A stretch of 64,000 nucleotides of DNA from Elusimicrobia bacterium UBA5214. GTDB taxonomy: Bacteria > Elusimicrobiota > UBA5214. This document shows, one piece after another, positions 26,833-52,986 of this stretch (positions within the stretch are counted from its first letter, which is position 1; every line of letters starts with the position of its first letter). The stretch is from contig DHVG01000002.1 in assembly GCA_002412545.1 (NCBI GenBank), positions 241,872 to 305,871 on the forward strand, given 5' to 3'. A program made the translations under genes and the position numbers. The notes beneath the pieces are model-generated. The model was not told the DNA's origin, ran no database searches, and worked only from the letters and a program-made list of their open reading frames with translations.

Positions 26833-28353
26833 TTATTTAAGAAAAGTAATTGCTTCTTGTGCTAAGTTAGCGAAAGGTGAAGGATACAAACCGATAAAAA
26901 TTATTACCAGAAGGACGATAACTACCGCGGTGGTCAAGAAGGGGGAAAAGTAACTTTTCTTTACCGTGGGATTTACTTCTCGTAAACCCCGTAAAGAATT
27001 ATACGGGGCACGAGACTTTTCGTCTAAAGTAAGATTTGCTGTTTCCGTCTTTACTGAATACATTTGTTGGATAATTTTGAAATAATAAGAAAGAGAAAAA
27101 ACGCTATTCAACACACCGACTACTGCTAACCAGGTGTAACCACTGCGTACCGCTGCACTGAATAAATAGAGTTTACCCATAAATCCGGCTAACGGTGGTA
27201 CACCGGCTAAAGAAAGTAAAAAGAAAACCATAGTTACAGCAAAGAAAGGAAACCTTTGGTTGAATCCAGCAAAATCTTCTATCAATTCACCTTCTTTAGA
27301 GTTAGCGATGACAATCGCAAAAACACCAAGATTAGCGAAAAGATAAACAAAAAGGTAAAAAAGCATACTTGAAAGTGCTAACCTATCCGCAACTGCTAAA
27401 CCAACTAAAAGATAGCCAGTATGAGCAATACTTGAGTAAGCAAGCATCCGTTTAACATTCTGCTGCATTAAAGCCAAGAGATTACCTACGGTCATACTTG
27501 CTACTGAAAGGAGAGCAAAGATGGTCATCCATTGTAATTTAAACGGAGAAAAAATGGTAAGAAATATTCTTAGAATAATAGCAAAACCAGCAATTTTTGG
27601 TCCGACCGAAAGATAAGCAGTAACCGGTGTTGGTGCACCTTCATAAGCATCAGGTAGACGGAAATGGAATGGCACAGCAGCAATTTTTATTCCCAAACCA
27701 AAAATAACGAAACTCATGGAGAGAAAAATAAGTGGTTGCTCAAGAAGGAATAATTTCTTTGCCATTTCTTGAAGATTTGTTGTTCCGGTAAGACCGTAAA
27801 GGAAAGAAAAACCATAGAGCATCGTTACCGAACCTAAAATACCTAAAAGAAAATACTTTACTGCTCCTTCGGTTGATTTAGGATTATTCCTATCTAACCC
27901 AGCTAAAATATAAGTAGGGATAGAGCATAATTCCAAAGCAATGTAAATGCTGACGAGGTCGTTAGCACTGATAACAAAAAATGTCCCGATAAGAGATAAA
28001 AAGAGTAAAATATAATATTCATTTTGATACCTACTCTGCTGGAAGAAGTCAGCAGAAATCAGAACAACTAATAATCCAGTAAACAGAATTGGTAAGCGTA
28101 AAAAAAGAGTCAATTCATCAATACTAAATATTCTTTGGAGGGAAACAAATCCCAGATTAATGAATTGTAAAGAAATGACTAAAGAAACGATAAGTCCAAT
28201 TAGTCCCAAATATATAGAGGTGGTAATTCCTTGAAATGATTCTTCTTCTTTGGAGAAGAATACCATCCGTAAGAGTAGATACAAGGTTGTAATGACTACA
28301 GTTATTTCCGGAAGATAGACAAAAGAATCCAAATCAAATATTCCAATTTTCAT
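26833..28353 (-). CDS. nuoN: NADH-quinone oxidoreductase subunit N-like antiporter subunit
   Basis: Proton-antiporter M-family fold (KRMLAYSSIAHTGY). Terminal position after the L and M homologs. Confidence 0.8.
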   Translation of the reverse strand: MKIGIFDLDSFVYLPEITVVITTLYLLLRMVFFSKEEESFQGITTSIYLGLIGLIVSLVISLQFINLGFVSLQRIFSIDELTLFLRLPILFTGLLVVLISADFFQQSRYQNEYYILLFLSLIGTFFVISANDLVSIYIALELCSIPTYILAGLDRNNPKSTEGAVKYFLLGILGSVTMLYGFSFLYGLTGTTNLQEMAKKLFLLEQPLIFLSMSFVIFGLGIKIAAVPFHFRLPDAYEGAPTPVTAYLSVGPKIAGFAIILRIFLTIFSPFKLQWMTIFALLSVASMTVGNLLALMQQNVKRMLAYSSIAHTGYLLVGLAVADRLALSSMLFYLFVYLFANLGVFAIVIANSKEGELIEDFAGFNQRFPFFAVTMVFFLLSLAGVPPLAGFMGKLYLFSAAVRSGYTWLAVVGVLNSVFSLSYYFKIIQQMYSVKTETANLTLDEKSRAPYNSLRGLREVNPTVKKSYFSPFLTTAVVIVLLVIIFIGLYPSPFANLAQEAITFLK

Positions 28354-28368
28354 ATTACTATTTTTTCA

Positions 28369-29907
28369 TCATTTAACGACGATTTCCAATAAAGATGTAA
28401 CCGCTGGATTGATAAAATTCAAAATTGGTGCCGGGTAAAGTCCAAGAATCAGAACAATCACCATCAAAGGGATGAAAACAATCCATTCTCTTAGAGTTAA
28501 TCCACCAGGACCTTTATAATTTCCTTGACCCAGTTGGAGAAGGTTAATCCGAATAATCAGACGCAGAAAATAAATTATCGTTAGAATCATACCCGGGATG
28601 ACTAGAATGATAAGAATTTTGCTTAGCCAAGTAGATTGAAAAACTCCTAACAAAACCATAAATTCGTTAATGAAATTACTTAATCCGGGTAAGCCCAGTG
28701 CGGTTAGGGCGGCAAAAGTCAATATCCCGCTTAGAGAAGGTAACCAGAAAGATGTTCCCTCAAGTTCTTTTATTTCCCAGGTTTGTCTTCTTTCACTGAT
28801 TACACTACTTGAGAGAAAGAGCAGACCAATAATTATCCCGTGATTAAACATTCCTAAGACGGCACCGTTTAGACCACTTACCGTACCTGCAGCAATACCC
28901 AAAATGATATACCCCATATGACTTAAACTTGAATAAGCAATTAACCTTTTTAAATCTTTTTGAGCCATTGCTACTATTGCGCCATAGACGATGTTTACTA
29001 TTCCCAGAATTGCCAAAGGGGTGGCAAATAGTCGTAAAGCATCAGGTAATATTGGTAAGACAATCCGGATAAATCCGTAAGTCCCCATCTTTGCTAGTAT
29101 TCCTGCGAGAAATACGCTTCCGGCAATTGGTGCTTCAGTATAAGCATCGGGTAACCAGGTATGAAAAGGGAATAGTGGCACCTTAAAGGCAAAGCCAATA
29201 AATAAAGCAAGAAAAAATAAAGCTTGAAGATTAAGAGGGAACTTACATCTTGCGATATCCAAAATACTGAAAGTATTCAATCTCGCTGAAAAATACATTC
29301 CAAGAATTCCAATGAGCATAATTACACTACCAAAAAGTGTATAAAGAAGAAACTTTAACGCTGCATATTCTTTTCTTGGTCCACCCCAGATACTAATCAG
29401 GAAATACATTGGTACAAGAACCCATTCCCAAAAAATATAGAAGAGGATAAAGTCAAGAGCAAGAAATAAACCGAGTGCACCGGTTTCAAGGAGAAGCAAA
29501 AGGATAAAAAATGCTTTTACCCGATACGCAAGATTCCAGGAGAAAACTACTACCAATAAGCCGAGGAGCGAACCTAAAAATAACAAAGGAAGACTTATGC
29601 CATCAACCCCTAAGTGATATTCAATCCCCACATTCTTAATCCAAGTATACCTTTCTACGAATTGCATACTTGTATTGCTGTCGGTCAGCACCGACTTGCT
29701 GTCGGTCAGCACCGACTTGCTGTCGGTCAGTACCGACTTGCGGTAATCAAAATTTGTCACCACAAAAAGAGTAAGAAGAAATACTGCACAAGTAATAGAA
29801 AGAGAAACGAATTTGATTTCCTTTTCTTTCCTTCCGGAAATTAAGAGGATAAGAATTACACCGAAAATAGGTAAAAGAATGATTGAAGATAAAATAGGTA
29901 AATTCAT
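28369..29907 (-). CDS. nuoM: NADH-quinone oxidoreductase subunit M-like antiporter subunit
   Basis: HTWLPDAYTEAP and KRLIAYSSLSHMGY blocks. Carries an in-frame 3 x 7-aa tandem repeat near the N-terminus. Confidence 0.8.
   Translation of the reverse strand: MNLPILSSIILLPIFGVILILLISGRKEKEIKFVSLSITCAVFLLTLFVVTNFDYRKSVLTDSKSVLTDSKSVLTDSNTSMQFVERYTWIKNVGIEYHLGVDGISLPLLFLGSLLGLLVVVFSWNLAYRVKAFFILLLLLETGALGLFLALDFILFYIFWEWVLVPMYFLISIWGGPRKEYAALKFLLYTLFGSVIMLIGILGMYFSARLNTFSILDIARCKFPLNLQALFFLALFIGFAFKVPLFPFHTWLPDAYTEAPIAGSVFLAGILAKMGTYGFIRIVLPILPDALRLFATPLAILGIVNIVYGAIVAMAQKDLKRLIAYSSLSHMGYIILGIAAGTVSGLNGAVLGMFNHGIIIGLLFLSSSVISERRQTWEIKELEGTSFWLPSLSGILTFAALTALGLPGLSNFINEFMVLLGVFQSTWLSKILIILVIPGMILTIIYFLRLIIRINLLQLGQGNYKGPGGLTLREWIVFIPLMVIVLILGLYPAPILNFINPAVTSLLEIVVK
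29677..29739. repeat. In-frame 21-nt x 3 tandem repeat inside the nuoM-like gene
   Basis: GCTGTCGGTCAGCACCGACTT x3 (one C-to-T change in the last copy) encodes SVLTDSK x3. Each unit contains the inverted pair GTCGGT/ACCGAC. Confidence 0.9.
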
Positions 29908-29910
29908 TTC

Positions 29911-31830
29911 TTACCAGATTAATAAAAGTATAAGAATTACTACCAGTAAACCAACAAAGATTGCTCCCGCGTAGTTTTGCACATAACCGGTCTGTATCTT
30001 TCTTAGTTTTTTGCTTAAGTTGACTATAGAAGAACCAATTCTATTCGCCGCTCCATCAATAACTTCTTTATCAAAAAGATTAACTCTTTCGCTTGTTTCC
30101 ACGATTATCCCGCCACCATTTTTAATCATTTTTTCCACCCGTCCTTCTTCAGCAGTTATCCCCCACGATTCACGGGCGTAAGGGATAAGTTTCTCTATTG
30201 CTAAAGTGTAAGCAGTATCAACTTTAGCGATTAAACTTCGGCATAACCAGATGGAAAAATAAGCAATCTTCCTATAGAAATAGTCAAAATCCAAAGTAAA
30301 GAGTTCATGAGGGGCGAAATATTCCCGGGAAAGGAAGAAAATCAGTAAAGTAACAAGGTAAATTTGTGCCGCACCAACGAGGTTGTGCCCAGAATAAAAG
30401 TGCAGTTCTTCTAAAGGATAAGGAAGAATACTGATTACAAATTTGGGATATATTCCCGTGAGCAAACAGAGAAACGCAACAACAAGCATTGGAATTTGCA
30501 TATTCCAGGGTACTTCTCTAATTTGTGAATAGGTGGATAAGTGGTTAAGTGATTTGTTCTGTCGGAGGAAACCAAAATAGGTAAATTTTAAGAAAGAGAG
30601 CCAGGTACCGACACTGGCAAGTTTAAGAAGCAAATAGACCGTATAATTATGATTATGATGTGCCGCTTCACTGATAATCGTCTTACTGATAAAACCGTTA
30701 AATAGAGGAATCCCGGCAATAGATAGTGAAGCGACTACCGCAGTAATTGTTGTAACCGGCATTCTTTTTGCTAACTGTCCAAGATTACTTAACCTCTCCT
30801 CACCAAGACGATAAATTACTGCCCCGGCAGACATAAAGAGCAGTCCTTTATAAAGAATGTGGTGTAAAGCATGGGCAAGTCCGGCGTTTACACCGAGGTC
30901 GCTACCGAGACCAATTGCGGCAACCATATAACCAACCTGACTGATAATATGGTAGGAAAGAAGTTTACGCATACTGTTTTGCATCAAGGCGAAAGTTACA
31001 CCATAGATTGCCATCAGTGCACCCATATAAGCAACAAAGTTGACCCCGGGGAATAACCGCGCTAAAGCATAGACCGCAGTTTTTGTCGTGTAGACCGACA
31101 TCAAGACACTTGCCGTAAAAGGTGCTTTCGGATAAGCATCTGGTAGCCAGGTATGTAAAAGTATAAAAGCGGCATTTACACCAACCCCGAGCAGAATGAG
31201 AATAAAAGATAATTTTGTTGTCGGTGTAATAAGTAAAAATGAAGCGGGGTCACCAAAAGAGAAAGGCTTCGCCCCGAGGCTCAGCCCGAGGGGACGGTAA
31301 GTAAACTCAATAATTATTCCCGCAAGCAAAAGAAGTCCACCAATGAGGTGAAATATTAAGTAGCGATAACCGGCTTTTAATGATTCCTCTTCACGCTTCA
31401 GCCAGATAAGGAATGTCGGGGCAAGTGCCATTATTTCCCAGAAGATGAAGAAGGTCAAATAATCACCAGCAAATAATACACCTAAGGATGAACCGATATA
31501 AAGAAATGAAAAGACAAAAAATAAATCATCTTCTATTTTGAAAGCATAAATTATGATGAGAAAACCAATCAAAACAAAAATGTAACCCATAAACAAATTC
31601 ATTTTGTCAACATAAAAGAAGATTAATGGTAAATCAAATAGACGAGAAAATTTTACTGTTTGTGGTTTAAGAAGGAAAGTTATAAATAAAGCAAGTAGAG
31701 GTGTAAGAATAATGAAAACCTTACTCAAGGTTTGCTTCCGAGTATGACTTAAGTCCAATGTTTCTCGTTGGCAAACTTTTAAGAATACTAAAATTACTGC
31801 ACCAAAAAGATAAATCAACCCGGGATGCAT
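29911..31830 (-). CDS. nuoL: NADH-quinone oxidoreductase subunit L-like subunit (with C-terminal lateral-helix/anchor region)
   Basis: Antiporter core (HTWLPDAYPKAP, LLSYHIISQVGYM) plus the C-terminal FDKEVIDGAANRIG...LRKIQTGYVQNYAGAIFVGLLVV and a final TM helix. Confidence 0.8.
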   Translation of the reverse strand: MHPGLIYLFGAVILVFLKVCQRETLDLSHTRKQTLSKVFIILTPLLALFITFLLKPQTVKFSRLFDLPLIFFYVDKMNLFMGYIFVLIGFLIIIYAFKIEDDLFFVFSFLYIGSSLGVLFAGDYLTFFIFWEIMALAPTFLIWLKREEESLKAGYRYLIFHLIGGLLLLAGIIIEFTYRPLGLSLGAKPFSFGDPASFLLITPTTKLSFILILLGVGVNAAFILLHTWLPDAYPKAPFTASVLMSVYTTKTAVYALARLFPGVNFVAYMGALMAIYGVTFALMQNSMRKLLSYHIISQVGYMVAAIGLGSDLGVNAGLAHALHHILYKGLLFMSAGAVIYRLGEERLSNLGQLAKRMPVTTITAVVASLSIAGIPLFNGFISKTIISEAAHHNHNYTVYLLLKLASVGTWLSFLKFTYFGFLRQNKSLNHLSTYSQIREVPWNMQIPMLVVAFLCLLTGIYPKFVISILPYPLEELHFYSGHNLVGAAQIYLVTLLIFFLSREYFAPHELFTLDFDYFYRKIAYFSIWLCRSLIAKVDTAYTLAIEKLIPYARESWGITAEEGRVEKMIKNGGGIIVETSERVNLFDKEVIDGAANRIGSSIVNLSKKLRKIQTGYVQNYAGAIFVGLLVVILILLLIW

Positions 31831-31843: not shown

Positions 31844-32146
31844 TTATGACTTTTGGTCCGAGGTTACATCGGACTTGATAGAATGTTTTTGTTCTTCAAT
31901 AAAATGAGACAAAACCTGAATTACAAAAATAAAATATAAACAACCAAAAATTGCAAGAAATATTTGGTAACCAGGTAGAATTTGCCACCATGGTTCAATT
32001 TGAAGGTTCACCTCTTCAGCAATTTTTTCTATTGCATAAACCCGGTTAGAATTTAACCCAATAAATAATATCAACTTCCAGAGGAAACTTAAAATCCTAA
32101 AAGGTACATACTTTCGTAACATTCTGACCGGGTAAAGATTAAGCAT
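31844..32146 (-). CDS. Small two-TM membrane protein, unknown function
   Basis: ORF embedded co-directionally between antiporter genes with short gaps. Two hydrophobic segments. No recognised family. Confidence 0.4.
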   Translation of the reverse strand: MLNLYPVRMLRKYVPFRILSFLWKLILFIGLNSNRVYAIEKIAEEVNLQIEPWWQILPGYQIFLAIFGCLYFIFVIQVLSHFIEEQKHSIKSDVTSDQKS

Positions 32147-32182: not shown

Positions 32183-33679
32183 TTACCTAAAAAAAGTTTC
32201 ACTAATCTGCCGAGTTAAATTCAATAACAATTTTGGATAAATTCCAAAAAATATAGTACACGCTGCAAGCAGAATTAAGGGTATTGCCATAAAGAAATTA
32301 GGGTCAACATTCTTTTGGTAATTGGTGGTTGGTAATTGGTAATTGGTAATCGGAGCAAACCAACCATTGTAAACGATTGGACCATAGTAAATCAAGTTCA
32401 TCAGGCTGCTTAAGAGAAGTATCCCTAAAGCAATTAAACCAGCGGTAGAACTGTAGTAGCCGATTTTTTCTGCTTCAAGAGTACCTAAAGCTAAGTACCA
32501 CTTACTAACGAAACCGTTTAAAGAAGGGAAACCAATCATTGAAAAAGCAAAAAGAGTGAAACAGAGTGTGACAAGGGGCATTCGTTTTCCGATACCACTG
32601 AGGTCTTTAATTTCGCGTAAACCAGTTTGATGAATAAATGTTCCTGCACAGAGAAATAAGCCACCTTTTATAATCGCATGGTTAAAGATATGAATTATTC
32701 CACCAGTTAAACTTAAAGGAGTAATTAAAACTAATCCAAGAATTATATAACCCATCTGGGAAATACTTGAGTACGCAAGCATTTTTTTTATTTCTGTCTG
32801 GGCAATTGCTACCGCTGAACCAAGAAGAATAGTAATTAAAGAAATAACAAACAAACTCGTCAATAACCAAGAATGTGTATAAAAAGATTCCCAGCCAAAA
32901 ACATTATAAATTGTCCTTAAAATTCCATAGCCACCAGCTTTAATCATAATTCCTGAAAGCAAAGCGCTTGCTGGTGAAGGAGCAATTGGATGTGCTTTCG
33001 GTAACCAGACATGTAGAGGAAAGAGACCGGCTTTTATTCCAAAACCAATAATATACCCCCAGAAGATATAAGGCATTAAAGGATGTTCTTTCAAACCCAT
33101 TCCGATGAGGTGAAGTTCTCCGGTATTAGTAATGGCGTAAGTAGCGATTACCGAGAGGAGGAGAATCAATCCCCCGGCGATACCAAGAAAAAGATAGAGG
33201 GTGCCAGCTCGAATTGCTTCTAAAGATTCCTCGTGGATAACTAAAACATAAGCGGCAATCGTAAGAAATTCAAAGAAAATGTATAAAGTCAAAAGGTTAC
33301 CACTAAAAGCCACACCAAGCATTCCCGTAAGTGAAAGTAAAGAAAAAAGGTTATAGCGACCCAGTTCCAAAGTTTCCCGACCCATATATTCAATACTGTA
33401 AATACTTGCTAACATCCAGAGGAATGCACTGATTAAACCAATAAGGAAACTGAGTGCATCCACACGTAGATAAAGATTTATTCCGATTCCCGGGTTCCAC
33501 ATTCCCGAGGTAACAACTTCATTTGCTCTAATCTTTGGATAAAGTGAAACCGTAGCAAAAAAACAGAGAAGACAAACTAATGCTACGAAGAAACTGCTTT
33601 TTCCTCGTTTTGTTTTTTCTATCTGAGGAACGAGAAAAGCAGAAAAAAAAGGTAAAAAAACAATCAATACTGGTAACAT
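32183..33679 (-). CDS. MrpD/NuoM-like antiporter subunit (extra copy, paralog of 44409-45959)
   Basis: HVWLPKAHPIAPSPASALLSG and KKMLAYSSISQMGY. Long stretches are shared with the 516-aa Mrp-cluster gene. Confidence 0.85.
   Translation of the reverse strand: MLPVLIVFLPFFSAFLVPQIEKTKRGKSSFFVALVCLLCFFATVSLYPKIRANEVVTSGMWNPGIGINLYLRVDALSFLIGLISAFLWMLASIYSIEYMGRETLELGRYNLFSLLSLTGMLGVAFSGNLLTLYIFFEFLTIAAYVLVIHEESLEAIRAGTLYLFLGIAGGLILLLSVIATYAITNTGELHLIGMGLKEHPLMPYIFWGYIIGFGIKAGLFPLHVWLPKAHPIAPSPASALLSGIMIKAGGYGILRTIYNVFGWESFYTHSWLLTSLFVISLITILLGSAVAIAQTEIKKMLAYSSISQMGYIILGLVLITPLSLTGGIIHIFNHAIIKGGLFLCAGTFIHQTGLREIKDLSGIGKRMPLVTLCFTLFAFSMIGFPSLNGFVSKWYLALGTLEAEKIGYYSSTAGLIALGILLLSSLMNLIYYGPIVYNGWFAPITNYQLPTTNYQKNVDPNFFMAIPLILLAACTIFFGIYPKLLLNLTRQISETFFR
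32325..32359. repeat. In-frame heptamer array TTGGTAA/TTGGTGG x5 inside an MrpD-like gene
   Basis: Encodes PITNYQLPTTNYQ in the loop before the last TM helix. See 25267-25301. Confidence 0.8.
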
Positions 33680-33689: not shown

Positions 33690-33876
33690 CCCTAAAATAC
33701 CAAATCTCAAATTCCAAATAACAAACAATATTTAAGTTTTAAACTCCAAATTTCAAACATTAAGGTTCTCTCTTCTAAGTCATAGTGTTTTGAATTTGGA
33801 ATTTGAGTATTAGATATTGTTTGTAATTTGTGGTTTGGAGATTGTGATTTGGTGCTTGGAACTTGTAATTTATCCA
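33690..33876. repeat. Deletion derivative of the four-helix-bundle element between two MrpD-like genes
   Basis: 33775-33860 aligns with 23826-23900 (GTCATAnTGTTTTGAATTTGnAATTTGAnnATTAGATATTGTTTG...). 33700-33760 aligns with 23450-23513. About 375 bp of ORF are missing. Confidence 0.7.
33707..33876 (-). pseudogene. Remnant of a four-helix-bundle gene (N-terminal ~36 codons only) inside a repeat element
   Basis: Translates to ...LQVPSTKSQSPNHKLQTISNTQIPNSKHYDLEERT, which parallels NSKLQAPNSKSQTISNVQIANSKHYDLEERT of the intact gene at 23514-23918. It then breaks off. Confidence 0.6.
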
Positions 33877-35377: not shown

Positions 35378-35686
35378 TTATCCTTTTAATAAATTTACTT
35401 TATCAATATATAAAGTGCCAAAATTACGGACAAGAACAAAAATCAAAGCGAAACCTATTGCCGCTTCGGTAGCTGCTAAAGTAATGATAAATAAAGCAAA
35501 CATCTGTCCAGAAAGATTTAAAGGTTCAAATAATTGAGAAAAAGCAACCAGGTTTATATTTACCGAGTTAAGCATCAGTTCAATTGACATTAATATACCG
35601 ATGGCATTACGCCGGGTTAAAACACCATAAATACCAATTACAAAAAGTAATGCACTCAAAATTAAATAATGATATACAGTAATCAA
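35378..35686 (-). CDS. nuoK: NADH-quinone oxidoreductase subunit K
   Basis: About 100 aa and 3 TM, with the GVLTRRNAIGILMSIELMLNSVNINLVAF block. 4-nt overlap with nuoJ. Confidence 0.9.
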   Translation of the reverse strand: MITVYHYLILSALLFVIGIYGVLTRRNAIGILMSIELMLNSVNINLVAFSQLFEPLNLSGQMFALFIITLAATEAAIGFALIFVLVRNFGTLYIDKVNLLKG

Positions 35687-36192
35687 TTCTTCTCCTCCCG
35701 AGTTAAAATTGCTACTCCTACGATAGTGGAGAGAAAAATTAATGATAGTAATTCAATTACGATTAAATAATTGCCAAAAATTAGTTTAGCAAAAGAAATA
35801 ATTTCTCTTGGTTGAGGAAAGATAAATTTAGTGCTCAGCACAAGAAAAGTTACCATAAAGACAAAAAGTAAAAGCCCACCTAAAGAGAAAACAATTAATA
35901 AAGCCGGTATTTTCTGTTCGCTACTTTGTTTTTCTTGTGGGTCAGCAATATTTGGTGTAAGCATTATTCCAAAAAGAACCAGCACAACCACTCCGCCAAC
36001 ATAAAGAAGGATTTGACTTGCAGCAACAAAATGTGCGTTAAGATGGAAATATAATCCCCCGATAGTGAAAAAAAACAATCCTAAAGCAAGCACATTACGG
36101 AAAAGATTTTTACCACTTACTACAACTAAAGCACTAATTACTGTAATGAGAGCAAAAAAATAAAAACTAACTGCATGAATTATTTTAGCCAT
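35683..36192 (-). CDS. nuoJ: NADH-quinone oxidoreductase subunit J
   Basis: Size, TM pattern and position between I and K. The VAASQILLYVGGVVVLVLF block is typical. Confidence 0.85.
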   Translation of the reverse strand: MAKIIHAVSFYFFALITVISALVVVSGKNLFRNVLALGLFFFTIGGLYFHLNAHFVAASQILLYVGGVVVLVLFGIMLTPNIADPQEKQSSEQKIPALLIVFSLGGLLLFVFMVTFLVLSTKFIFPQPREIISFAKLIFGNYLIVIELLSLIFLSTIVGVAILTREEKN

Positions 36193-38120: not shown

Positions 38121-38170
38121 GCTGTCAGCCATCAGCCTATAGCCGTTAACCGAGGGCTGTGGGCTAATTG
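38121..38170. repeat. Heptamer dyad array (NNNAGCC x3, then NNGGGCT)
   Basis: AGCC/GGCT word family, also at 40297, 50461 and 57088. Confidence 0.7.
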
Positions 38171-41560: not shown

Positions 41561-41600
41561 TGTTCTTTACTTAAATATATTTTTTTACAAAATTGTAAGA

Positions 41601-41629
41601 ATTTTAACAAAAAGATTATCTTTTGTCAA
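41601..41629 (-). promoter_or_regulatory. Sigma70-like promoter of the nuo operon
   Basis: On the minus strand, TTGACA - 17 nt - TAAAAT, about 40 nt upstream of the nuoA ATG. Confidence 0.6.
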
Positions 41630-41680
41630 GGAAAAAATTTAAAAATTTGGTGAGTAATATTGAGTTGACCCTTATGTCGT

Positions 41681-45987: not shown

Positions 45988-46079
45988 GATTACAGCGATT
46001 ATTGAAGGCGATTACAGTGATTAATAACTTTGATTTTATCTCCGTAATCGATGTTTCTATCACCGTAATCATAGATTAC
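45988..46079. repeat. Dyad array (GATTACAGCGATT ... ATCACCGTAATC)
   Basis: The first half has GATTACAG(C/T)GATT twice. The second half has ATC(T/A)CCGTAATC twice. Confidence 0.75.
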
Positions 46080-46574
46080 TTATTTATGTTCTTCGTGTAT
46101 ACCTAAAAAAGCATAAACTACTAAGAGTATACCTAAAACTGTTTTATAGATAAGTCTTAAAGAACTTGTAACTACTGATTCGTGATAACCTTCAACAAAA
46201 ATTTTTTTCTCAGTATCAAAATACCCGGCTAAAGAAGGCATCTGTTCGATAATATACAAGACTAACCCAAGAATAATTAGTAGTTTTGCTAAAGCCAATG
46301 TCTCGCGCTTGGGTAATTCACCGTGGGTCCGATAAAAATATGCTACTACAATCAATAAAGTCAGCAGTAGAACTATCCAATAGAAGTAATATACCTTTGG
46401 TACCGGCGCAACTGCATGAGGTTCAGGATGCATTTCTTCGTGGGTTTCTTCGGTGATTTTCTGTTCGGTTACTTGATGTTGTTCACTGGTTTCTTCACCA
46501 GTTAATACAATAAGATTTGTATTTAATAAAACGAACACTAAGCACAGAAACATTATCATCAATCTTTTTTTCAT
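46080..46574 (-). CDS. Membrane protein with acidic/His-rich exoplasmic N-terminal region, unknown function
   Basis: Signal/TM segment, then EETSEQHQVTEQKITEETHEEMHPEPH, then three TM segments. Embedded between antiporter genes. Confidence 0.5.
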   Translation of the reverse strand: MKKRLMIMFLCLVFVLLNTNLIVLTGEETSEQHQVTEQKITEETHEEMHPEPHAVAPVPKVYYFYWIVLLLTLLIVVAYFYRTHGELPKRETLALAKLLIILGLVLYIIEQMPSLAGYFDTEKKIFVEGYHESVVTSSLRLIYKTVLGILLVVYAFLGIHEEHK

Positions 46575-46582: not shown

Positions 46583-46700
46583 TTGGCGTTTTTTTAACGC
46601 CAAATCACCAAAAAATGCCGTTGATTTTTTAGCCTTCTTTATTTTTGCGTTCTCGCTTTTCTCTTAGCGTTTTTGCGGAGATTCATCTTTTGCGTTTTAG
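46583..46700. repeat. TTGGCGTTTTTGCG-word array with a perfect hairpin TTGGCGTT-TTTTT-AACGCCAA
   Basis: Word family shared with 49941-50056 and 54387-54500. Confidence 0.7.
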
Positions 46701-46708: not shown

Positions 46709-48205
46709 TTATGGAAAAAATTCTTTTACCGTCGCTTGAGATAACACATAAGGTGCACCACCAATCAAACCAAAGGCTAAAGATAATACTGCAGTGATAA
46801 TAATTGGTATCAACATACTTAATGGTACTTCAAGAAAATATTTTTCTTTAGAGGTGGTTACCTCAAATTCTAACCCTGTCAGTGGAATAAGATTCTCTCC
46901 CTTTTTGAAATAAGCATAAATAAGTGGACGCATCAGAAAACCTAATTCCAGTATTGAACTGATTAAGAAAACTATCGCAAAATATGGCTGTCGCAAATTT
47001 AGATATCCTTGAATCAGATAAACCTTACTTACCCAACCGGCTACTGGTGGAATACCAACTATCCCCCAGGCAGCAATCGCGAAAGCCCCCCAGCTTAGAG
47101 GCATCTGCCGAGCTAGACCCGACATTTCTTTAATTAATGTTTTGCCAGTTTGTTTGATTACTGCACCTACTGCGTAGAACATTGTAATTTTCATTATTGA
47201 ATGAAATAAAAGATGGAGTAGAGCACCCATTAAAGCGATGGGATGAGCGGCTGCCGCACCTAAAATTACAAAACTTAACTGGTTAGCTGTAGAGTAGGCA
47301 AGAAGACGTTTTATCTGTCGTTGCCGTAAAGCAAAAATTGCCGAAAGAATAGTAGTTATTGTTGCCAGAATACCCAATCCATAAGTAAGATATAATTGAT
47401 GAAATAATCCAGGTCCTAAAACACTATAGATAACTCTGATTAATCCATATACACCGGCATTCACTACTGCTACTGCATGAAGTAAAGCACTAATTGGAGT
47501 AGGTGCAACCATTGCTTGAGGTAGCCAGGCATGAAAAGGCATCAGACAACCTTTCACTCCAAAACCAAAAATAAAAAGTAGAGAAAGCAAATACAAAATA
47601 AACCTACTCTTGTTTATTAATTCAGGAATGCCTCCTGCAGTAAAGGTGATATTCCCGCCAGTGGTAAGATAAGTCAAAAGAATAGCAAAAAGAACCATTA
47701 TTCCGCCACCTAAAAGATAAACCAAATAAACTATTCCCGCATGGTATGCTTCAGTTGATTGTTCGTGAATCACTAAAGGGTAAACAACAATGGTCAGAAA
47801 TTCATAAAAAATGTATAAACTCAAAAGATTAGCACTGAAGATTATGCCCATCTCTGCACTTAAAGCAAGGGTTAAACAAAAATAGTATCTTGTTTGCGCA
47901 TGTTCACCGGACATATAGCCGAAAGAATAGATTTCAGTAAATATCCAGAGGAAAGTAACCAATATTCCCATCAATAAACTAAGATTATCTACACGGAACT
48001 GTAAAGCGAAAAGGTTCAGGTCAACCAGAGTAAAAGAAGGGAAATTCCCACCGAGAACTGATGGCGCAATCCAAAGAACAATAACAAAATTAGTAAGACA
48101 GGTGATTAGAATCACTAAATTACGCAGAGGACGATTTCTTTCACCAATCAAACCAATCAGAATTGCTCCCACAATCGGTATAATTACCGTTGAAAAAATT
48201 AACAT
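46709..48205 (-). CDS. MrpD/NuoN-like antiporter subunit
   Basis: HAWLPQAMVAPTPISALLHA and KRLLAYSTANQLSF. Paralog of 33877-35376. Confidence 0.85.
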   Translation of the reverse strand: MLIFSTVIIPIVGAILIGLIGERNRPLRNLVILITCLTNFVIVLWIAPSVLGGNFPSFTLVDLNLFALQFRVDNLSLLMGILVTFLWIFTEIYSFGYMSGEHAQTRYYFCLTLALSAEMGIIFSANLLSLYIFYEFLTIVVYPLVIHEQSTEAYHAGIVYLVYLLGGGIMVLFAILLTYLTTGGNITFTAGGIPELINKSRFILYLLSLLFIFGFGVKGCLMPFHAWLPQAMVAPTPISALLHAVAVVNAGVYGLIRVIYSVLGPGLFHQLYLTYGLGILATITTILSAIFALRQRQIKRLLAYSTANQLSFVILGAAAAHPIALMGALLHLLFHSIMKITMFYAVGAVIKQTGKTLIKEMSGLARQMPLSWGAFAIAAWGIVGIPPVAGWVSKVYLIQGYLNLRQPYFAIVFLISSILELGFLMRPLIYAYFKKGENLIPLTGLEFEVTTSKEKYFLEVPLSMLIPIIITAVLSLAFGLIGGAPYVLSQATVKEFFP

Positions 48206-48217: not shown

Positions 48218-48340
48218 AATTACAGCGATTATTGTCGGCGATTACAGCGATACAATTCTCTCTCATTATCGCTGGCATCGTCTGTTTATCCCGTTTGGAA
48301 ATCGCTCCATTTCTAACGGGATTTATCGTCGTAATCGTAG
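48218..48340. repeat. Dyad array (GATTACAGCGAT ... ATCGTCGTAATC; inner ATCCCGTT/AACGGGAT)
   Basis: Read directly between two antiporter genes. Confidence 0.75.
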
Positions 48341-48345: not shown

Positions 48346-49932
48346 TTACTTGAGTAAAATTTCTGCCGCCCGACTTACCACTTTTAAAGGTATACGCACG
48401 AATATGCCCATAAAGATGACTGCTAAAGTAAGACAAATTAACGGAATTAACATTGAAATCGGTGCTTCTTCAATCCGATGTTCAACTTCTTGAATTTGAC
48501 CTCCGTTCGTCTTATTAATGTTGTTATGTCTGGCTGGCGGAACAAAAAATGCTATCCCGACTACCCGCAGATAATAAATTGCTGCTAAAAGACTACTGGT
48601 TAGCAGAACGACTATCAATATTGGATACCCGGCTTTTGCCGAAGCAGTCAAGAGATACCATTTACTCATAAACCCACAAAGTGGCGGGATGCCCATCATG
48701 GCTAAAGCACCAATTGTAAAACATCCCATCGTTACTGGCATTTTGTAACCAATTCCGCGTAAGTCACTGATGTTCCGTATGCCAGTTTTGTAAATAATTG
48801 CACCGGCACAAAGGAAGAGTAATCCTTTCATTAAAGCATGATTAAAAATATGTAAAATTGAGCCGGTTAAACCATCTTTACTGATTAAGGCAATACCGGC
48901 GAGAATATAACCCATCTGGGCAATCGTAGAGAAAGCAAGCATTCTTTTTAAATTAGTTTGGGCAATCGCAAAGACCGAACCACCAATAGCGGTGAGTATA
49001 GTTACAACGATAAAAAAAGGAGGTAAAAAGAAACCGTAGTAACCTTTATGTGCACCAAAAATGGTAAACAGAAATCGGATTAAATAGAAAAGTCCACTTA
49101 TCTTTACAAATATACCGGAAAGGAGAGCACTCACCGGTGACGGTGCCGCTGGGTGTGCATCAGCTAACCAGGCATGTACCGGGAAAAATGCCGATTTTAT
49201 ACTAAACCCAGCAATCAAAAGTCCTAAAGCAGCATAGATATGGTAACGGAAATGGGTTAAATACAGCGGTGCATCCGGTGCAAAAATTTTGTCAATTTGT
49301 GTAGCGGCATAAAACATATTCAAAGTGCCAGTAGAGGCATAAAGTAAAAGGATACCAAAGAGTAAAAAAATGGAACCCATTGTGCCAATAACTGCATATT
49401 TAAAAGCTGCTTCGGTTGATTCTTTATTAGTAGAAATTGCTACCAAAGCATAGGAACTAATTCCAGATAACTCCAGAAAAATATAAAAATTGAAGAAGTC
49501 GCCAGTTATGGATAAGCCAGACATTCCGGCAGTGAATAAAAGTAACAAAGTGTAGTAAAATCCAATTTTCTCTTCAGGAATAAGATGGGGGACATACCTT
49601 TTTGAGTAGAGAGTAGCCAGAAAACATAATCCGCTAATTTGGATTAGCATAAACGCACCGAGTAAATCAGTCCGCATCACTATTCCAATTGGTTCGCCAG
49701 TAGGTAAATATCTTAGACCACTCCAGGAATATCCTAAAAAGTATTGAATTGTTCCTTCGGAAGAACTTATAACTCTCAAGAAAATCAACCAGGAAAAAAT
49801 CAAACTTAATAAACTGGCGGCGATTGCTACTGGTTCAGACAATTTTCTTCGCCAACGAAAAATTACCGGCATAAAAAATGCACTGACAATTAGACCAACC
49901 GGTAGCAAAACTTGTAAATGTGTTCCTTCCAT
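48346..49932 (-). CDS. mrpD: MrpD/MbhH-like antiporter subunit
   Basis: HAWLADAHPAAPSPVSALLSG and KRMLAFSTIAQMGY. Follows mrpC, as in Mrp/Mbh operons. Confidence 0.85.
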   Translation of the reverse strand: MEGTHLQVLLPVGLIVSAFFMPVIFRWRRKLSEPVAIAASLLSLIFSWLIFLRVISSSEGTIQYFLGYSWSGLRYLPTGEPIGIVMRTDLLGAFMLIQISGLCFLATLYSKRYVPHLIPEEKIGFYYTLLLLFTAGMSGLSITGDFFNFYIFLELSGISSYALVAISTNKESTEAAFKYAVIGTMGSIFLLFGILLLYASTGTLNMFYAATQIDKIFAPDAPLYLTHFRYHIYAALGLLIAGFSIKSAFFPVHAWLADAHPAAPSPVSALLSGIFVKISGLFYLIRFLFTIFGAHKGYYGFFLPPFFIVVTILTAIGGSVFAIAQTNLKRMLAFSTIAQMGYILAGIALISKDGLTGSILHIFNHALMKGLLFLCAGAIIYKTGIRNISDLRGIGYKMPVTMGCFTIGALAMMGIPPLCGFMSKWYLLTASAKAGYPILIVVLLTSSLLAAIYYLRVVGIAFFVPPARHNNINKTNGGQIQEVEHRIEEAPISMLIPLICLTLAVIFMGIFVRIPLKVVSRAAEILLK

Positions 49933-49940: not shown

Positions 49941-50056
49941 CGCTAAAGCGCTAAATGCCGATAAATCGCCTCCGCCATTGAGTCAGTGGCGGATTGTATT
50001 TTTGCGGATTCTTTTCTTTTTGGCGTTTTTGCGTTTAATTTAGCGTTTTTGGCGTC
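49941..50056. repeat. GCGCTAAA/GGCGTTTTTGCG-word array with hairpin CCGCCA...TGGCGG
   Basis: Read directly between mrpC and mrpD. Confidence 0.65.
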
Positions 50057-50446
50057 TTAACCTTTAAGTGCCGTTATTTTTCTTGTATCCAGAGTCCCAA
50101 AATATTGGTAAAGTTTCACTACTAAACTTAAACTAAATGCAGTGATACAAACACAGACGACAATCGCGGTAAGAATTAGTCCAGTTGGGATGGGGTTAAC
50201 CATTATCTCTTTACCGGTCCAAGCAGCAATTGCATCTTTTAAATAGGGTGATTTCGCCCAGGAGGTGGTAATTTTACCTAATCGGACATCACCCAAAGCA
50301 ATATAAGATAAATAAACTGATGTTTCCAAAATGTTTAGGGCAAGAAGTTTCTTGAAAACATTATGTTTAAAAACCAGACCATATAAACCAATCGTGAATA
50401 AAATTACTGAGACGACATAATCAATATTGCTGAGTATTGTTTTCAT
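50057..50446 (-). CDS. mrpC: Na+/H+ antiporter subunit C (MrpC/MbhG, NuoK-like)
   Basis: About 130 aa and 3 TM, with a LALNILETSVYLSYIALG block. Position between B and D. Confidence 0.8.
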   Translation of the reverse strand: MKTILSNIDYVVSVILFTIGLYGLVFKHNVFKKLLALNILETSVYLSYIALGDVRLGKITTSWAKSPYLKDAIAAWTGKEIMVNPIPTGLILTAIVVCVCITAFSLSLVVKLYQYFGTLDTRKITALKG

Positions 50447-50460: not shown

Positions 50461-50510
50461 TGCGCCATTAGCCCATAGCCATTGGCTAACGGCTATAGGC
50501 TGACGGCTAA
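50461..50510. repeat. Heptamer dyad array (AGCCNNN x3, then GGCTNNN x4), centred on CCATTGG
   Basis: CCATTAGCCCATAGCCATTGGCTAACGGCTATAGGCTGACGGCT. Confidence 0.8.
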
Positions 50511-50512
50511 AC

Positions 50513-51313
50513 TTATTTTTGAGTATCTAGCGGTCTTTCAGTAACATATCCGTAAAAAATATGAGTGATAATACTCCCTACGCCAAAACCAATACCAAGT
50601 TCAATAAGTAATAAAGGTAACGAACTGAAAAGCGTGCCTTCAATTCCATGCGGGATTGTTTTGATTACCTTATTTGCTAAAAATGTATAACCAGTAACTA
50701 TTCCGATTAAACCGACAAGAGCATACATAAAAGGTCCAAGGGCATTAACAATTCTTAAAGTATCCGAGGGCATCTTTTTTTCGCCTTCTTCATAACTGAA
50801 AATAAGTGCATAAAGAACAAAACTTGCCCCTAAAATTACTCCTCCCTGGAAACCACCACCTGGTGATACTTCACCATGGAAAATTACATAAAGACCATAC
50901 ATTACCATAAAAGGGACTATTTTTTTTATCACTGTTCCGACAATAGTGTAACGAGTTACTCCTATCCAGGTCTCGGTATCTTCCTCTTTTTTTCTTTTTC
51001 CTACTAAGACCGATAATGCGGCAATCATGGCTAAAAAAATTACTGTGGTTTCATATAAAGTATCATACCCACGATAATCAAGTATCATTGCCGTAATTGC
51101 ACTCGGTGAACCGCAATTTTTAATTGCACCGCGGTTGTAATATAATCCTACCGCATTACTCTGTTTGGTAATTTCTTCAACTGGTACATCAGGGGGAAGA
51201 TAACCTGCATAGGATGGGACATGTGGGTCACCTACTGGAGGAAGTTGCAACACAACAACAATTGTCAAAAGAAGAAAAATGAAAAACATCAGAAACATCA
51301 GAATTTTTCTCAT
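50513..51313 (-). CDS. mrpB: Na+/H+ antiporter subunit B-like (MnhB domain; MbhE/F-like)
   Basis: ITAMILDYRGYDTLYETTVIFLA and HGEVSPGGGFQGGVILGA are the MnhB-domain blocks. Confidence 0.8.
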   Translation of the reverse strand: MRKILMFLMFFIFLLLTIVVVLQLPPVGDPHVPSYAGYLPPDVPVEEITKQSNAVGLYYNRGAIKNCGSPSAITAMILDYRGYDTLYETTVIFLAMIAALSVLVGKRKKEEDTETWIGVTRYTIVGTVIKKIVPFMVMYGLYVIFHGEVSPGGGFQGGVILGASFVLYALIFSYEEGEKKMPSDTLRIVNALGPFMYALVGLIGIVTGYTFLANKVIKTIPHGIEGTLFSSLPLLLIELGIGFGVGSIITHIFYGYVTERPLDTQK

Positions 51314-51389
51314 AGGTCGCTACACTCACCATGACCCTGTCTTCGGTAAACTTAGACCCCAAGCCTGCCGAGGGGAATTTGCTGAAAGG

Positions 51390-51671
51390 TCATCTTTTTT
51401 CCAGCTCATTCTTTTCCTCAAGTTCTTTCTCGTAGCGAGGTATTTTACTTAGTGCCGCAACAAATAGTAATGTACTTATTCCTGCACCAACTGCCGCTTC
51501 AGTCATTGCTACATCGGGACTGCGCAGAATTAAATAAGTTATCGCCATAGAAAAACTATAAACACTAAAAATTATTACCGCATGCAGTAAATCTTTAGTT
51601 ACGATTGTGGCTAATGCCGAAATGATTAGTAAAAGCAAGATTAAAATGTGACTAATAATCAGTAAATCCAT
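51390..51671 (-). CDS. DUF4040 / MbhD-like (MrpA C-terminal-like) membrane subunit
   Basis: 3-TM, 93-aa protein with SPDVAMTEAAVGAGISTLLF, which matches the MrpA C-terminal/MbhD module. Confidence 0.7.
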   Translation of the reverse strand: MDLLIISHILILLLLIISALATIVTKDLLHAVIIFSVYSFSMAITYLILRSPDVAMTEAAVGAGISTLLFVAALSKIPRYEKELEEKNELEKR

Positions 51672-51683
51672 TTTACTTCCATT

Positions 51684-51788
51684 AAATCGTTAATTCCGTT
51701 GTGTCCGTTAATACCGTTTTGACCGTTAGACCGTTCAATGGACATAACTGACTAAACGGACTCAACGGAATTAACGGACTTAACGCCC
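51684..51788. repeat. Dyad array (NNNCCGTT x6, then NNAACGGA x4), overlapping the mrpG stop
   Basis: TCCGTTAAT is complementary to ATTAACGGA. Period 8-9. Confidence 0.75.
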
Positions 51789-52130
51789 TTCTATTTTTTC
51801 TTCAAGGAGATGAAATGTCGTCTCCGGACAAGGTTTAACTCCCGCTTTACGACAATAGCGTAAAAGAATATGAATCACAATTGGATTAACAAAAAGCATA
51901 AAAATTATAATCACTAAAATTTTTATGCTTTCTATCGGGTTTACAGTTAGCCAATATATCCAGAGACCGGCTAATGAAAATAAGAAACCGGGACTATCAC
52001 CTTTACCGGCAACATGTCCACGGGTATAAGGGCAAGGCATTCGGAGAATCCCGACGGTTGCCGCAATGAAAAAAATTATTCCACCGGTCATTAGGATTAT
52101 TGCGATAACATAGGCTAAAGCAAGGGTCAT
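51780..52130 (-). CDS. mrpG: Na+/H+ antiporter subunit G (MrpG/MbhC)
   Basis: GILRMPCPYTRGHVAGKGDSPGF corresponds to the G..R.PD.Y.R.HA family block. Confidence 0.85.
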   Translation of the reverse strand: MTLALAYVIAIILMTGGIIFFIAATVGILRMPCPYTRGHVAGKGDSPGFLFSLAGLWIYWLTVNPIESIKILVIIIFMLFVNPIVIHILLRYCRKAGVKPCPETTFHLLEEKIEGR

Positions 52131-52399
52131 TTATCTAAACTCCTTACTTCCAGATATTTGACAAAAGCTAAAGTTGAAATGAAAAGTAAAAATACATAAA
52201 CCATCGCTAAATCAAAAAAGAAAGGTTCGTTAAATACCGCACCGACATAAGCCATTAGAACGGTTATTTTCGTTCCAATAATGTTCACACTGATTACCCG
52301 GTCAGCCGTAGTTGGACCAATCACTGCACGGTAAAGACATAAAATGATTGTAACTGACAAGATAATCATTAAAATTTTCAAAAATATTAGAAAAACCAT
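52127..52399 (-). CDS. mrpF: Na+/H+ antiporter subunit F (MrpF/MbhB)
   Basis: LYRAVIGPTTADRVISVNIIGTKI block. 90 aa and 3 TM. 4-nt overlap with mrpG. Confidence 0.85.
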   Translation of the reverse strand: MVFLIFLKILMIILSVTIILCLYRAVIGPTTADRVISVNIIGTKITVLMAYVGAVFNEPFFFDLAMVYVFLLFISTLAFVKYLEVRSLDK

Positions 52400-52947
52400 C
52401 TAAAGACCTTCTGTATTCTTTTCACAAAACCAGCATCTTTAAGAATACTTTCTGCATTTTCCTGACTGATACAATGGACAGTAAAGATATACCCTTCAGC
52501 AGTTTTTTCTACATCAATAGTGATTGTTCCCGGAGTTAAAGTTATAGAATTTGCATTAATCGTATTTTGTAAAGCATCAGGGAGTGGTGATTTTACCTGG
52601 ACAATCGCTGGCGAGATACGCATATTTATTCTTAATACGCGGTTGGCGACATCTATCCCCGCAAGAAGAATATCCCAGGTTAGACGGATACTATACAAAA
52701 ATATGCGGAATAGATTGCTTGGCTTGAGGAGATATAATTCTTCCGGTGGAATGATTGATTGGGGGAAGAGTGAACTAACTAAAACGGCTAAAACTAAACC
52801 AACAATAACATGCTGAATTAAGTTGAGAAAACCGATAGGAGTAGCAAAATCCGGGGGGAAACTGATTGCTAACCAAAAGAGAAAAAGAATTATTGTCTGG
52901 ACTAAAAAACTCTGACGCTGAATTTCGCCAGTCCTTGTAGTCCTCAT
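52387..52947 (-). CDS. mrpE: Na+/H+ antiporter subunit E (MrpE/MbhA)
   Basis: NANSITLTPGTITIDV block. Start set at ATG 52947 because the TTG at 52986 used by the ORF track is the first half of a consensus -35 hexamer (TTGACA). Confidence 0.8.
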   Translation of the reverse strand: MRTTRTGEIQRQSFLVQTIILFLFWLAISFPPDFATPIGFLNLIQHVIVGLVLAVLVSSLFPQSIIPPEELYLLKPSNLFRIFLYSIRLTWDILLAGIDVANRVLRINMRISPAIVQVKSPLPDALQNTINANSITLTPGTITIDVEKTAEGYIFTVHCISQENAESILKDAGFVKRIQKVFRWFF

Positions 52948-52957
52948 CAAATATTGA

Positions 52958-52986
52958 ATTTTACTAAAAAAATACAAATTTGTCAA
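52958..52986 (-). promoter_or_regulatory. Sigma70-like promoter of the mrp operon (would give a near-leaderless mrpE mRNA)
   Basis: On the minus strand, TTGACA - 17 nt - TAAAAT, ending 10 nt before ATG 52947. Confidence 0.5.

Follow-up and report, generated by a model that had tools for sequence, protein, structure and literature searches.

Complex I with four antiporter-like subunits (pumps) has been described as the Nitrospira 2M form and the rhizobial green complex I, and complex I with five, called unique in 2022, as Complex_I_3 of Ca. Manganitrophaceae, for which ~6 ions per 2 electrons and reverse operation were proposed (PMC9040806). Among Mrp antiporters, the name Group 3 is given to clusters of irregular gene order that have two mrpD genes, examples being mrpFGBCDDAE of Microbacterium TS-1 and the cyanobacterial mrpCD1D2EFGAB (PMC5703873), and extra nuoL/M-like genes beside Mrp have been mentioned in passing for Nitrospira (PMC12342949). 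Here we describe a locus in a 64,000-nt stretch of Elusimicrobia bacterium UBA5214 (the window), in which a set of Mrp-type genes (the mrp half) and a set of complex I genes (the nuo half) stand side by side on the minus strand at 26833-52986. A preliminary description of this DNA held the predicted pumping module to be much larger than in described systems, which was an overstatement given these published four- and five-pump forms of complex I and two-mrpD forms of Mrp; our targeted literature search found no five-pump complex I other than that of Ca. Manganitrophaceae, and no description of a four- to five-pump Mrp form carrying the accessory protein that we call X1. We conclude, with a probability of roughly 0.7, that the genes of the locus form two adjacent, co-directional transcription units, each for a separate membrane complex, and that two antiporter genes of the second unit, D4 and D5, were duplicated from two of the first, D2 and D3.

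We favour two complexes because each half is complete for its own family, has its own conserved promoter and has a parent architecture that occurs alone elsewhere; between the two options left by the preliminary description, the same observations speak for two unusually expanded complexes and away from one modular super-assembly. Gene identities were taken from a listing of open reading frames (ORFs) together with Pfam and NCBIfam scans of the translations, and an Rfam scan of the window gave no match. We use D1 to D5 for the MrpD-like proteins, A_906 for the MrpA-N/NuoL-like protein (A for its family), X1 and X2 for two small membrane proteins and L' (L_639) for the protein that replaces NuoL. 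The main comparisons were made with L006 and L096, contigs of one related species (A 70% and NuoI 87% identical to the window); L098, from a third lineage (NuoI 63% identical to the window); L008, an unclassified metagenome contig; L009 from Schekmanbacteria; L100, an Actinomycetota metagenome-assembled genome (MAG); and L015, a Thermodesulfobacteriota MAG. D proteins were placed in a neighbour-joining (NJ) tree with 100 bootstraps. In the order of the minus strand, the features of the locus, whose G+C content is ~36%, are as follows.

52958-52986, minus: promoter of the mrp operon, TTGACA-17-TAAAAT, 11/12 consensus; same sequence 5' of mrpE in L006
52387-52947, minus: MrpE (MNHE; PF01899, 95 bits); true start ATG 52947 (Met14 of the listed ORF), not TTG 52986, by N-terminal alignment of four orthologues
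52127-52399, minus: MrpF (PF04066, 58.8 bits)
51780-52130, minus: MrpG (PF03334, 66.8 bits)
51390-51671, minus: MbhD/DUF4040, stand-alone counterpart of part of the MrpA C-terminal domain (PF13244, 81.8 bits)
50513-51313, minus: MbhE-like N-terminus fused to MnhB (MrpB) (PF04039, 87 bits; PF20501 weak)
50057-50446, minus: MrpC, NuoK-like (PF00420, 80.9 bits)
48346-49932, minus: D1, MrpD-like, class Da, 528 aa, key residues intact (PF00361, 233 bits)
46709-48205, minus: D2, MrpD-like, class Db, 498 aa (PF00361, 188 bits)
46080-46574, minus: X1, accessory membrane protein, 164 aa, without Pfam family; orthologues in related clusters
44409-45959, minus: D3, MrpD-like, class Dc, 516 aa (PF00361, 217 bits)
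41681-44401, minus: A_906, MrpA-N/NuoL-like, 906 aa (PF00361)
41601-41629, minus: promoter of the nuo operon, TTGACA-17-TAAAAT with extended -10 TG, 11/12 match; conserved in L006
41189-41560, minus: NuoA (PF00507, 103 bits)
40737-41198, minus: NuoB, with the N2-cluster cysteines (PF01058)
40345-40740, minus: NuoC (PF00329, 146 bits); start probably 40740, the listed ORF running from 40809 and the JGI gene call being 131 aa
39189-40289, minus: NuoD, quinone type (PF00346, Complex1_49kDa, 345 bits)
38186-39139, minus: NuoH (PF00146, 386 bits)
36185-38116, minus: NuoI fusion, 643 aa (NuoI/TYKY and NfnB/GltD-type matches)
35683-36192, minus: NuoJ (PF00499, 95 bits)
35378-35686, minus: NuoK (PF00420, 100 bits)
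33877-35376, minus: D4, MrpD-like, paralogue of D2, 499 aa (PF00361, 215 bits)
32183-33679, minus: D5, MrpD-like, paralogue of D3, 498 aa (PF00361, 211 bits)
31844-32146, minus: X2, small protein with a single transmembrane segment (TM), without Pfam match
29911-31830, minus: L', lateral-helix-bearing NuoL replacement, 639 aa (NF009310, 581 bits, cut-off 564)
28369-29907, minus: NuoM, 512 aa (TIGR01972, 534 bits, cut-off 264)
26833-28353, minus: NuoN, 506 aa (TIGR01770, 415 bits, cut-off 333)

From 52986 down to 26833 this series is uninterrupted and co-directional, the mrp half running MrpE, MrpF, MrpG, MbhD, MbhE-like plus MnhB, MrpC, D1, D2, X1, D3, A_906 and the nuo half, after a gap of 120 nt (41561-41680), running NuoA, B, C, D, H, NuoI fusion, NuoJ, NuoK, D4, D5, X2, L', NuoM, NuoN. 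The scans thus confirmed a co-directional series of Mrp and complex I genes as first described, the Mbh-type order of its mrp half (E-F-G-MbhD-E-B-C-D) and the count of nine antiporter-like subunits, 4 + 5, each with a Pfam Proton_antipo_M domain. Besides the MrpE start, two readings had to be corrected: the small membrane gene of the mrp half lies between D2 and D3, and had been placed after the extra MrpD-like genes, and the supposed nuoL is not a canonical NuoL, as it passes NF009310 and fails TIGR01974. All nine antiporter-like genes are uninterrupted ORFs, and alignment with E. coli NuoL, NuoM and NuoN shows the Glu of TM5 and the Lys/Glu of TM12 kept in every one and the Lys of TM7 in eight, L' being the exception. 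Since the ORFs are intact and the key charged residues kept, none of the nine resembles a decaying pseudogene, a doubt raised at the outset about the extra copies.

The nuo half is best described, from its domains and gene order, as a green-type complex I that has five pumps and, as its input module, NuoI::GltD. It is of the 11-subunit type, its core proteins NuoA, B, C, D, H, I, J, K, M and N all scoring above the Pfam gathering cut-offs and NuoM and NuoN also above those of TIGRFAM. In place of a canonical NuoL it appears to carry a Mrp-type cassette, D-D-x-L'. L' reaches 172 bits on the canonical NuoL model TIGR01974 (cut-off 407.5) and belongs to the NF009310 family, 'Na+/H+ antiporter subunit D'; canonical NuoL was absent from its eight best blastp matches in the comparison set, all of them A- or D-class at ~27-30% identity, and its best solved relatives, at low scores, are MbsH', MbsH and NdhF. 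Over its full length it is 35.7% identical to a gene of the Rhizobium lentis green complex, which is encoded on plasmid NZ_CP071455 in the order nuoJ-K-(MrpD, 487 aa)-(84 aa)-(NF009310, 591 aa)-nuoM-N-A-B-C-D-E-F-G. The window therefore resembles the rhizobial complex in that a MrpD-like subunit, a small single-TM gene and an NF009310 subunit replace NuoL between nuoK and nuoM. X2 always lies just 5' of L' and is conserved only in its C-terminal ~45 aa (PWWQILPGY..AIFG); its homologues have 42 aa in L096, 69 aa in the Mrp cluster of L015, which ends C-D-D-x69-L', and 84 aa in the Rhizobium green complex I, and a single-TM motif, W-x-Q-I/L-P-G...A-I/V-F/Y-G, is common to all four contexts. Because the green-type cassette has one more D gene in the window, we count five antiporter-like subunits: the rhizobial complex has one D and four pumps, whereas the window has two D and five pumps. 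The two differ further in that the rhizobial cluster has NuoEFG and the window has none, with a GltD-like module inside NuoI instead, and in the gene order of the Q-module and the P-module.

The length of the lateral helix (HL) in L' fits a single arm of five antiporter-like subunits. The corresponding block measures 54 aa in E. coli NuoL, which spans M and N, 72 aa in rhizobial L', which would span D, M and N, and 95 aa in the window's L', which would span D4, D5, M and N. The AF2 model of L' (pLDDT 84.9 overall, lower in the helix) places lateral helices at residues 515-553 and 563-613 and TM16 at 617-638, with ~99 helical residues between TM15 and TM16. This rise of HL length with the number of subunits to span bears on a different interpretation, that D4-D5-X2-L' is a passenger, or an independent module outside complex I that joins, for example, the Mrp small subunits encoded upstream, which would leave complex I with NuoM and NuoN only or with an L subunit encoded elsewhere. 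A D-D-x-L' block does form the end of the genuine Mrp cluster of L015, an orphan paralogue of L' (56% identical) is found on a separate contig of the same metagenome, and in L006/L096 an IS200/RAYT-like gene is inserted between nuoK and D4, which marks this junction as prone to rearrangement. Yet the cassette fills exactly the NuoL position between nuoK and nuoM in three lineages and in the green complex I of rhizobia, the gaps to its nuo neighbours are only 1-15 nt, and the window holds no canonical nuoL; we therefore consider a cassette outside complex I unlikely. The window matches contig Ga0134309_00002 (325 kb) of JGI metagenome 3300038308; the orphan gene, of 633 aa and 56% identical to L_639, occupies 10001-11902 of L014, which is contig Ga0134309_00004 of that metagenome, and stands there among chemotaxis and housekeeping genes.

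On the redox side, NuoB has the four cysteines of cluster N2 (CCxxE, GSC, CPP), and NuoD has the complex I-type motifs HPSTHG and RLDY, with the His and Tyr of the quinone site; we take these to be the cofactor and quinone-site positions by analogy with Nqo4/Nqo6 motifs. Pfam scans of the 64-kb window found no genes for NuoE, NuoF or NuoG. NuoI had been marked as odd in the preliminary description, correctly, but the nature of the fusion, an inserted NfnB/GltD-like module, had not been recognised. Three stretches of it have separate counterparts: residues 12-54 correspond to the N-terminal segment in solved NuoI/TYKY chains (E = 5e-5), residues 81-494 to NfnB/GltD-type chains with up to 341 bits, and residues 559-642 to the 2x[4Fe-4S] domain of NuoI/TYKY. 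From these segment matches it follows that NuoI contains an inserted flavin/NAD(P)H module of ~500 residues, which brings two additional [4Fe-4S] clusters. The fusion protein has both CxxCxxCxxxCP motifs and both GxGxxG/A motifs. The same fusion recurs elsewhere in >120 clusters at ~50% identity over 99% of the length, many of them from Coriobacteriia and Actinomycetota, so far as the searchable literature shows a widespread but little described flavin input module of NuoI. The complex I operons of those groups are like the nuo half in sharing the fusion, the order nuoABCDH-I*-JK and the lack of NuoEFG; unlike it, the NuoI::GltD operons elsewhere have canonical NuoL-M-N (three pumps) and no mrp neighbour. 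Three contigs (L010, L011, L012) show this in a full nuoA-N series and two (L017, L018) have plain L-M-N, L018 showing plain nuo genes only, while L016 has a gene of L length after nuoK and then ends. When metagenome contigs were scanned with patterns from the GltD part only, 76 of 80 loci lacked nuo or mrp neighbours and 4 were nuo operons. In L010 (GCA_964348135.1, 1-5718) the NuoI::GltD nuo operon divergently adjoins rnfC/rnfD and genes that, from their list of Pfam domains, we take to encode a group 3 [NiFe] hydrogenase.

The mrp half is best described, by the same kind of evidence, as belonging, with four pumps, to an expanded Mrp family that is widespread but little described. Its Mrp/CPA3 set is complete, with MNHE, MrpF_PhaF, PhaG_MnhG_YufB, MbhD, MnhB (with a weak MbhE match), Oxidored_q2 and four Proton_antipo_M proteins. 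Related clusters stand on their own: L008 has E-F-G-MbhD-MbhE-MnhB-C-D-D-D-x-D-A followed by PHP and histidine-kinase genes, L100 has E-F-G-MbhD-MbhE/B-C-D-D-D-x-A followed by unrelated genes, neither with nuo, and L009 keeps the same mrp order up to A, where the contig ends. L008 and L009 encode MbhE and MnhB as two genes, L006 and L100 as one fusion. Three classes of orthologues, Da, Db and Dc, can be told apart among the D genes, with 94-100% bootstrap for Da and Db (100% for the Da clade, which includes D1). In X1, a signal or TM segment and a His/Glu-rich stretch precede a 3-TM domain that bears the motifs YYxYW, IDQxP and GYHE; X1 orthologues lie in the mrp clusters of L006, L008, L009 and L100, and the protein is rare, since only 40 representative clusters match it among 1.84 billion representative proteins. 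A_906 has many relatives, which come from Schekmanbacteria, Nitrospirota, Firestonebacteria, Actinomycetota, Ca. Oleimmundimicrobium and Methanosarcinales; used as sole query against genome contigs, A_906 returned only canonical antiporter genes at ~29% identity. The nearest solved structures are MbhH, MrpD and MrpA. Its AF2 model has a confident core of 14 TM, after which come ~185 residues of amphipathic helices (660-844) with three imperfect repeats of ~30 residues and two C-terminal TM (847-872 and 876-897). Like Group 3 Mrp, the mrp half has the complete subunit set, a non-Bacillus order and more than one mrpD; unlike it, it has three D plus A (four pumps, and five in L008), the extra conserved subunit X1, and a MrpA divided among MbhD, MbhE and an N-domain protein whose lateral helix is very long.

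The two halves are tied together by the origin of D4 and D5, which the tree indicates to be lineage-specific duplicates of D2 and D3 from the neighbouring operon. D2 and D4 are 60% identical, as are D3 and D5, and in the NJ tree D2+D4 (81% bootstrap) and D3+D5 (79%) form clades with the orthologues from L008, L009 and L100 outside. The D4 clade of the window, L006 and L098 has 100% bootstrap; in L098 a D4 orthologue (69-70% identical to D4 vs 60% to D2) directly follows nuoK, with a fragment of a D3/D5-like gene behind it, and D5 is 77% identical to its orthologue in L096, whose second half reads K, IS200/RAYT-like gene, D4, D5, x42, L' (651 aa), M, N, hypA. The rhizobial D falls together with a Mrp D of L015 (L015_Db; 90%) and not with D4 or D5, which are thus not orthologous to the D of the green complex and derive instead from the neighbouring A-type Mrp operon. 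By the same evidence, D4 and D5 would have been set beside an X2-L' pair of a different Mrp lineage. The passage of D2 and D3 copies from the mrp into the nuo operon by local duplication accounts for the two operons sitting together. Synteny of the halves, which had been put forward as a check, is conserved in part: adjacency is kept in L006/L096 and nowhere beyond that one closely related species. Class Db, including D2 (window, L006, L008, L009), has Asn at the Lys position of TM8, whereas the nuo-operon paralogue D4 has Lys, a difference that possibly reflects functional divergence after duplication.

That each half is a transcription unit of its own is indicated by its promoter. A consensus scan of 23000-53400 found only two 11/12 matches on the coding strand, one heading each half (52986-52958 and 41629-41601). 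The nuoA promoter, a 29-nt string, TTGACAAAAGATAATCTTTTTGTTAAAAT, is identical in L006, though the gap between mrp and nuo there is 343 nt, and the string of the mrpE promoter is likewise present in L006; this verbatim conservation, the best test available, is also the best available evidence that the two predicted promoters are real, and it bears out the preliminary description, which had placed a promoter in the 120-nt gap. The mrpE ATG lies 10 nt past the -10 box with no Shine-Dalgarno sequence visible, an arrangement that is the same in L006 and, given the short distance, implies a nearly leaderless transcript.

Separate promoters also weigh on the idea of one modular super-assembly, in which Mrp and the complex I variant would dock end to end or share subunits, uniting nine antiporter-like subunits in a layout resembling MBH/MBX/MBS, where a Mrp module is joined to NuoBCDHI-like subunits. 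In favour of it, the halves are co-directional with no terminator between them, their adjacency is kept in L006/L096, D paralogues are common to both, and the Thermotoga mbx-like operon has a gltD-related flavoprotein in the NuoI position together with an mrp module (PMC4758237). Nevertheless, each half has a complete subunit set beside its conserved promoter, the mrp unit occurs without nuo (L008, L100) and the NuoI::GltD nuo operon without mrp, NuoA/J/K/M/N, absent from MBH/MBX-type enzymes, are encoded within the nuo half itself, and adjacency extends to a single other, closely related species. A single assembly has no specific support, and we judge it very improbable; that Mrp docks on the distal end of the five-pump complex I, or swaps D subunits with it, to give a redox-driven assembly of nine antiporters strikes us as extremely doubtful, although such an assembly, if true, would link the movement of both H+ and Na+ to NAD(P)H:quinone chemistry. 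The comparison with MBH and MBX points the same way: the mrp half shares the MbhA-H order with MBH, but no hydrogenase or oxidoreductase module is attached to it, and where the MBH and MBX/MBS of Thermococcales and the Thermotoga mbx-like enzyme join one Mrp module to NuoB/C/D/H/I-like subunits without NuoA/J/K/M/N, the redox module of the window has a full complex I membrane arm, its own promoter and a NuoD without [NiFe] site. Finally, that the nuo half is a group 4 [NiFe] hydrogenase (Mbh/Ech-like), which would explain the downstream hypA, hypF, hypD and hypE, can be dismissed at the sequence level on the motifs of NuoD, for although hypA follows nuoN at 30 nt, conserved in L096, and NuoD has a weak NiFeSe_Hases match and one vestigial Cys in its C-terminal motif (DPCFGEIDR), the other three of the four [NiFe] cysteines are missing, HPSTHG, RLDY and 345 bits on Complex1_49kDa mark it as complex I-type, and NuoA, J, K, M and N are complex I-specific. 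The domain and motif evidence thus indicates that the locus is neither an MBH/MBX-type fusion nor a hydrogenase.

Several points weigh against two transcription units with two complexes, or against the five-pump arm. As the preliminary description had noted, no terminator-like hairpin is found in the 120-nt gap (41561-41680); intergenic gaps within the mrp half are 66-140 nt, a range that includes the gap between the halves, and since the gap holds no hairpin and its length is normal for the locus, read-through co-transcription is possible. L' lacks the TM7 Lys of the Glu-Lys pair, with Asn in its place across the L'/NF009310 family (consensus GxGxNAAF), and may therefore not be a normal pumping unit. 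The increments in its lateral helix, ~18-23 aa per subunit over three sequences only, fall below the published 26 aa (PMC9040806). The tail of A_906 has pLDDT <50 in the AF2 model, and in the A family the variable HL segment has 141, 172 and 223 aa with three D genes vs 196 aa with four; a lateral-helix 'ruler' was accordingly rejected as evidence for that family, there being no clean relation to the number of D genes.

If two complexes are formed, the first would be an expanded Mrp-type (CPA3) cation/proton antiporter made of E, F, G, MbhD, MbhE-B and C with D1, D2, D3, A_906 and X1, in which the long, repeat-bearing lateral helix of A_906 may strap the three D subunits to the small-subunit module. 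Extra proton channels could raise the ratio of H+ to Na+ (or K+), and cations could then be expelled at low proton-motive force. In the second complex, electrons would pass from NAD(P)H to FAD, through the two GltD-like [4Fe-4S] clusters and the two NuoI clusters to N2 in NuoB, and on to quinone at NuoD/NuoH; the components of this path are evident from domains and motifs, and from them we infer the path itself. The membrane arm would consist of NuoA/H/J/K, NuoN and NuoM with D4, D5, X2 and L' in the place of NuoL, the lateral helix of L' being lengthened in step with the extra subunits. One ion per antiporter-like subunit plus one via the E-channel would amount to up to ~6 ions per 2 electrons. 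At midpoint potentials of -320 mV for NAD(P)H, -74 mV for menaquinone and ~+100 mV for ubiquinone, two electrons yield about 0.49 eV with menaquinone or 0.84 eV with ubiquinone, and six ions need a motive force of at most about 80 mV or 140 mV, respectively. From these yields, the nuo complex could plausibly work forward at full stoichiometry only if the motive force is low or the quinone is of high potential. Under other conditions it may run in reverse, from quinol to NAD(P)+, a mode suggested for the variants of Nitrospira and Manganitrophus (PMC9040806, PMC12342949); another possibility is that some of the Mrp cassette exchanges Na+ for H+.

Our reading of the nuo half as a five-pump complex I invites comparison with Complex_I_3, which it resembles in having five antiporter-like subunits, Mrp-type subunits in the place of NuoL and a lengthened lateral helix. 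The two differ in composition, Complex_I_3 having 2 MrpD-like, 2 NuoM and NuoN and the window 2 MrpD-like, L', 1 NuoM and NuoN (one protein passing the NuoM model), as well as in electron-input module and host, Nitrospirota for the former and Elusimicrobia for the latter; they are set apart here by description, not by sequence. So compared, the five-pump complex I of the window is of different composition and independent origin; only one other route to five pumps in complex I is known, and that in a different phylum. Here the five-pump version would have been built when duplicates of two MrpD genes of the adjacent Mrp operon entered a cassette of the green-complex type. Stand-alone four- and five-pump Mrp clusters occur in at least four lineages, and together with this five-pump complex I they suggest that antiporter modules are freely adjustable in number in this superfamily, the lateral helix lengthening to match. 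The result is a natural series of 2, 3, 4 and 5 modules with which ion/electron or ion/ion stoichiometry can be tested against module number, and two unannotated families of accessory subunits, X1 and X2, are brought to light.

Repeated elements lie in a number of intergenic gaps. A dispersed heptamer, CCAAAT(T/N), often in inverted pairs, has 19 matches vs 1.55 expected, with sites at 10946-11067, 23455-23885, 26334-26427 and 33707-34065, among them the 197-nt gap between D4 and D5 and the one between hypA and hypF; given the IS200/RAYT-like Y1_Tnp gene in L006/L096, the repeats may be REP-like elements. A pair of 42-nt repeats, 88% complementary, lies in the NuoH-NuoI gap (38127-38168) and the MrpB-MrpC gap (50467-50508), a hairpin with 40-nt arms in the MrpG-MbhD gap (51688-51776), and further repeated intergenic pairs at 45989-46050 with 48219-48280 and at 46642-46675 with 50018-50051. 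Such repeats may account for the unusually long gaps of the mrp half. A 75-aa ORF at 33707-33934 was rejected as a gene, being of low complexity, without Pfam match, absent from L096 and located in a gap filled with the dispersed repeat. Within nuoM, at 29675-29744, three tandem 21-nt units encode KSVLTDS three times in an N-terminal loop (residues ~56-77).

Downstream of the locus (19609-26802), hypA is followed by hypF, a gene of the 23S-rRNA-IVP family, hypD, a DUF6946 gene and hypE; the hydrogenase that these hyp genes serve is not in the window, NuoD lacking the [NiFe] site. Genes of defence or mobile type flank the region at 2927-6035 and 13176-18416, at a G+C content of 30-35%, and comprise a PLD-like/NgoFVII-type nuclease, an AIPR protein, a 909-aa Eco57I-like methylase/restriction fusion, an HNH protein and a Fic protein. 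At the edge of the window (108-1936) lies the B subunit of a V/A-type ATPase (ATP-synt_ab plus a V/A-type C-terminal domain), and the ion to which this ATPase is coupled, Na+ or H+, would bear on what the two pump complexes do.

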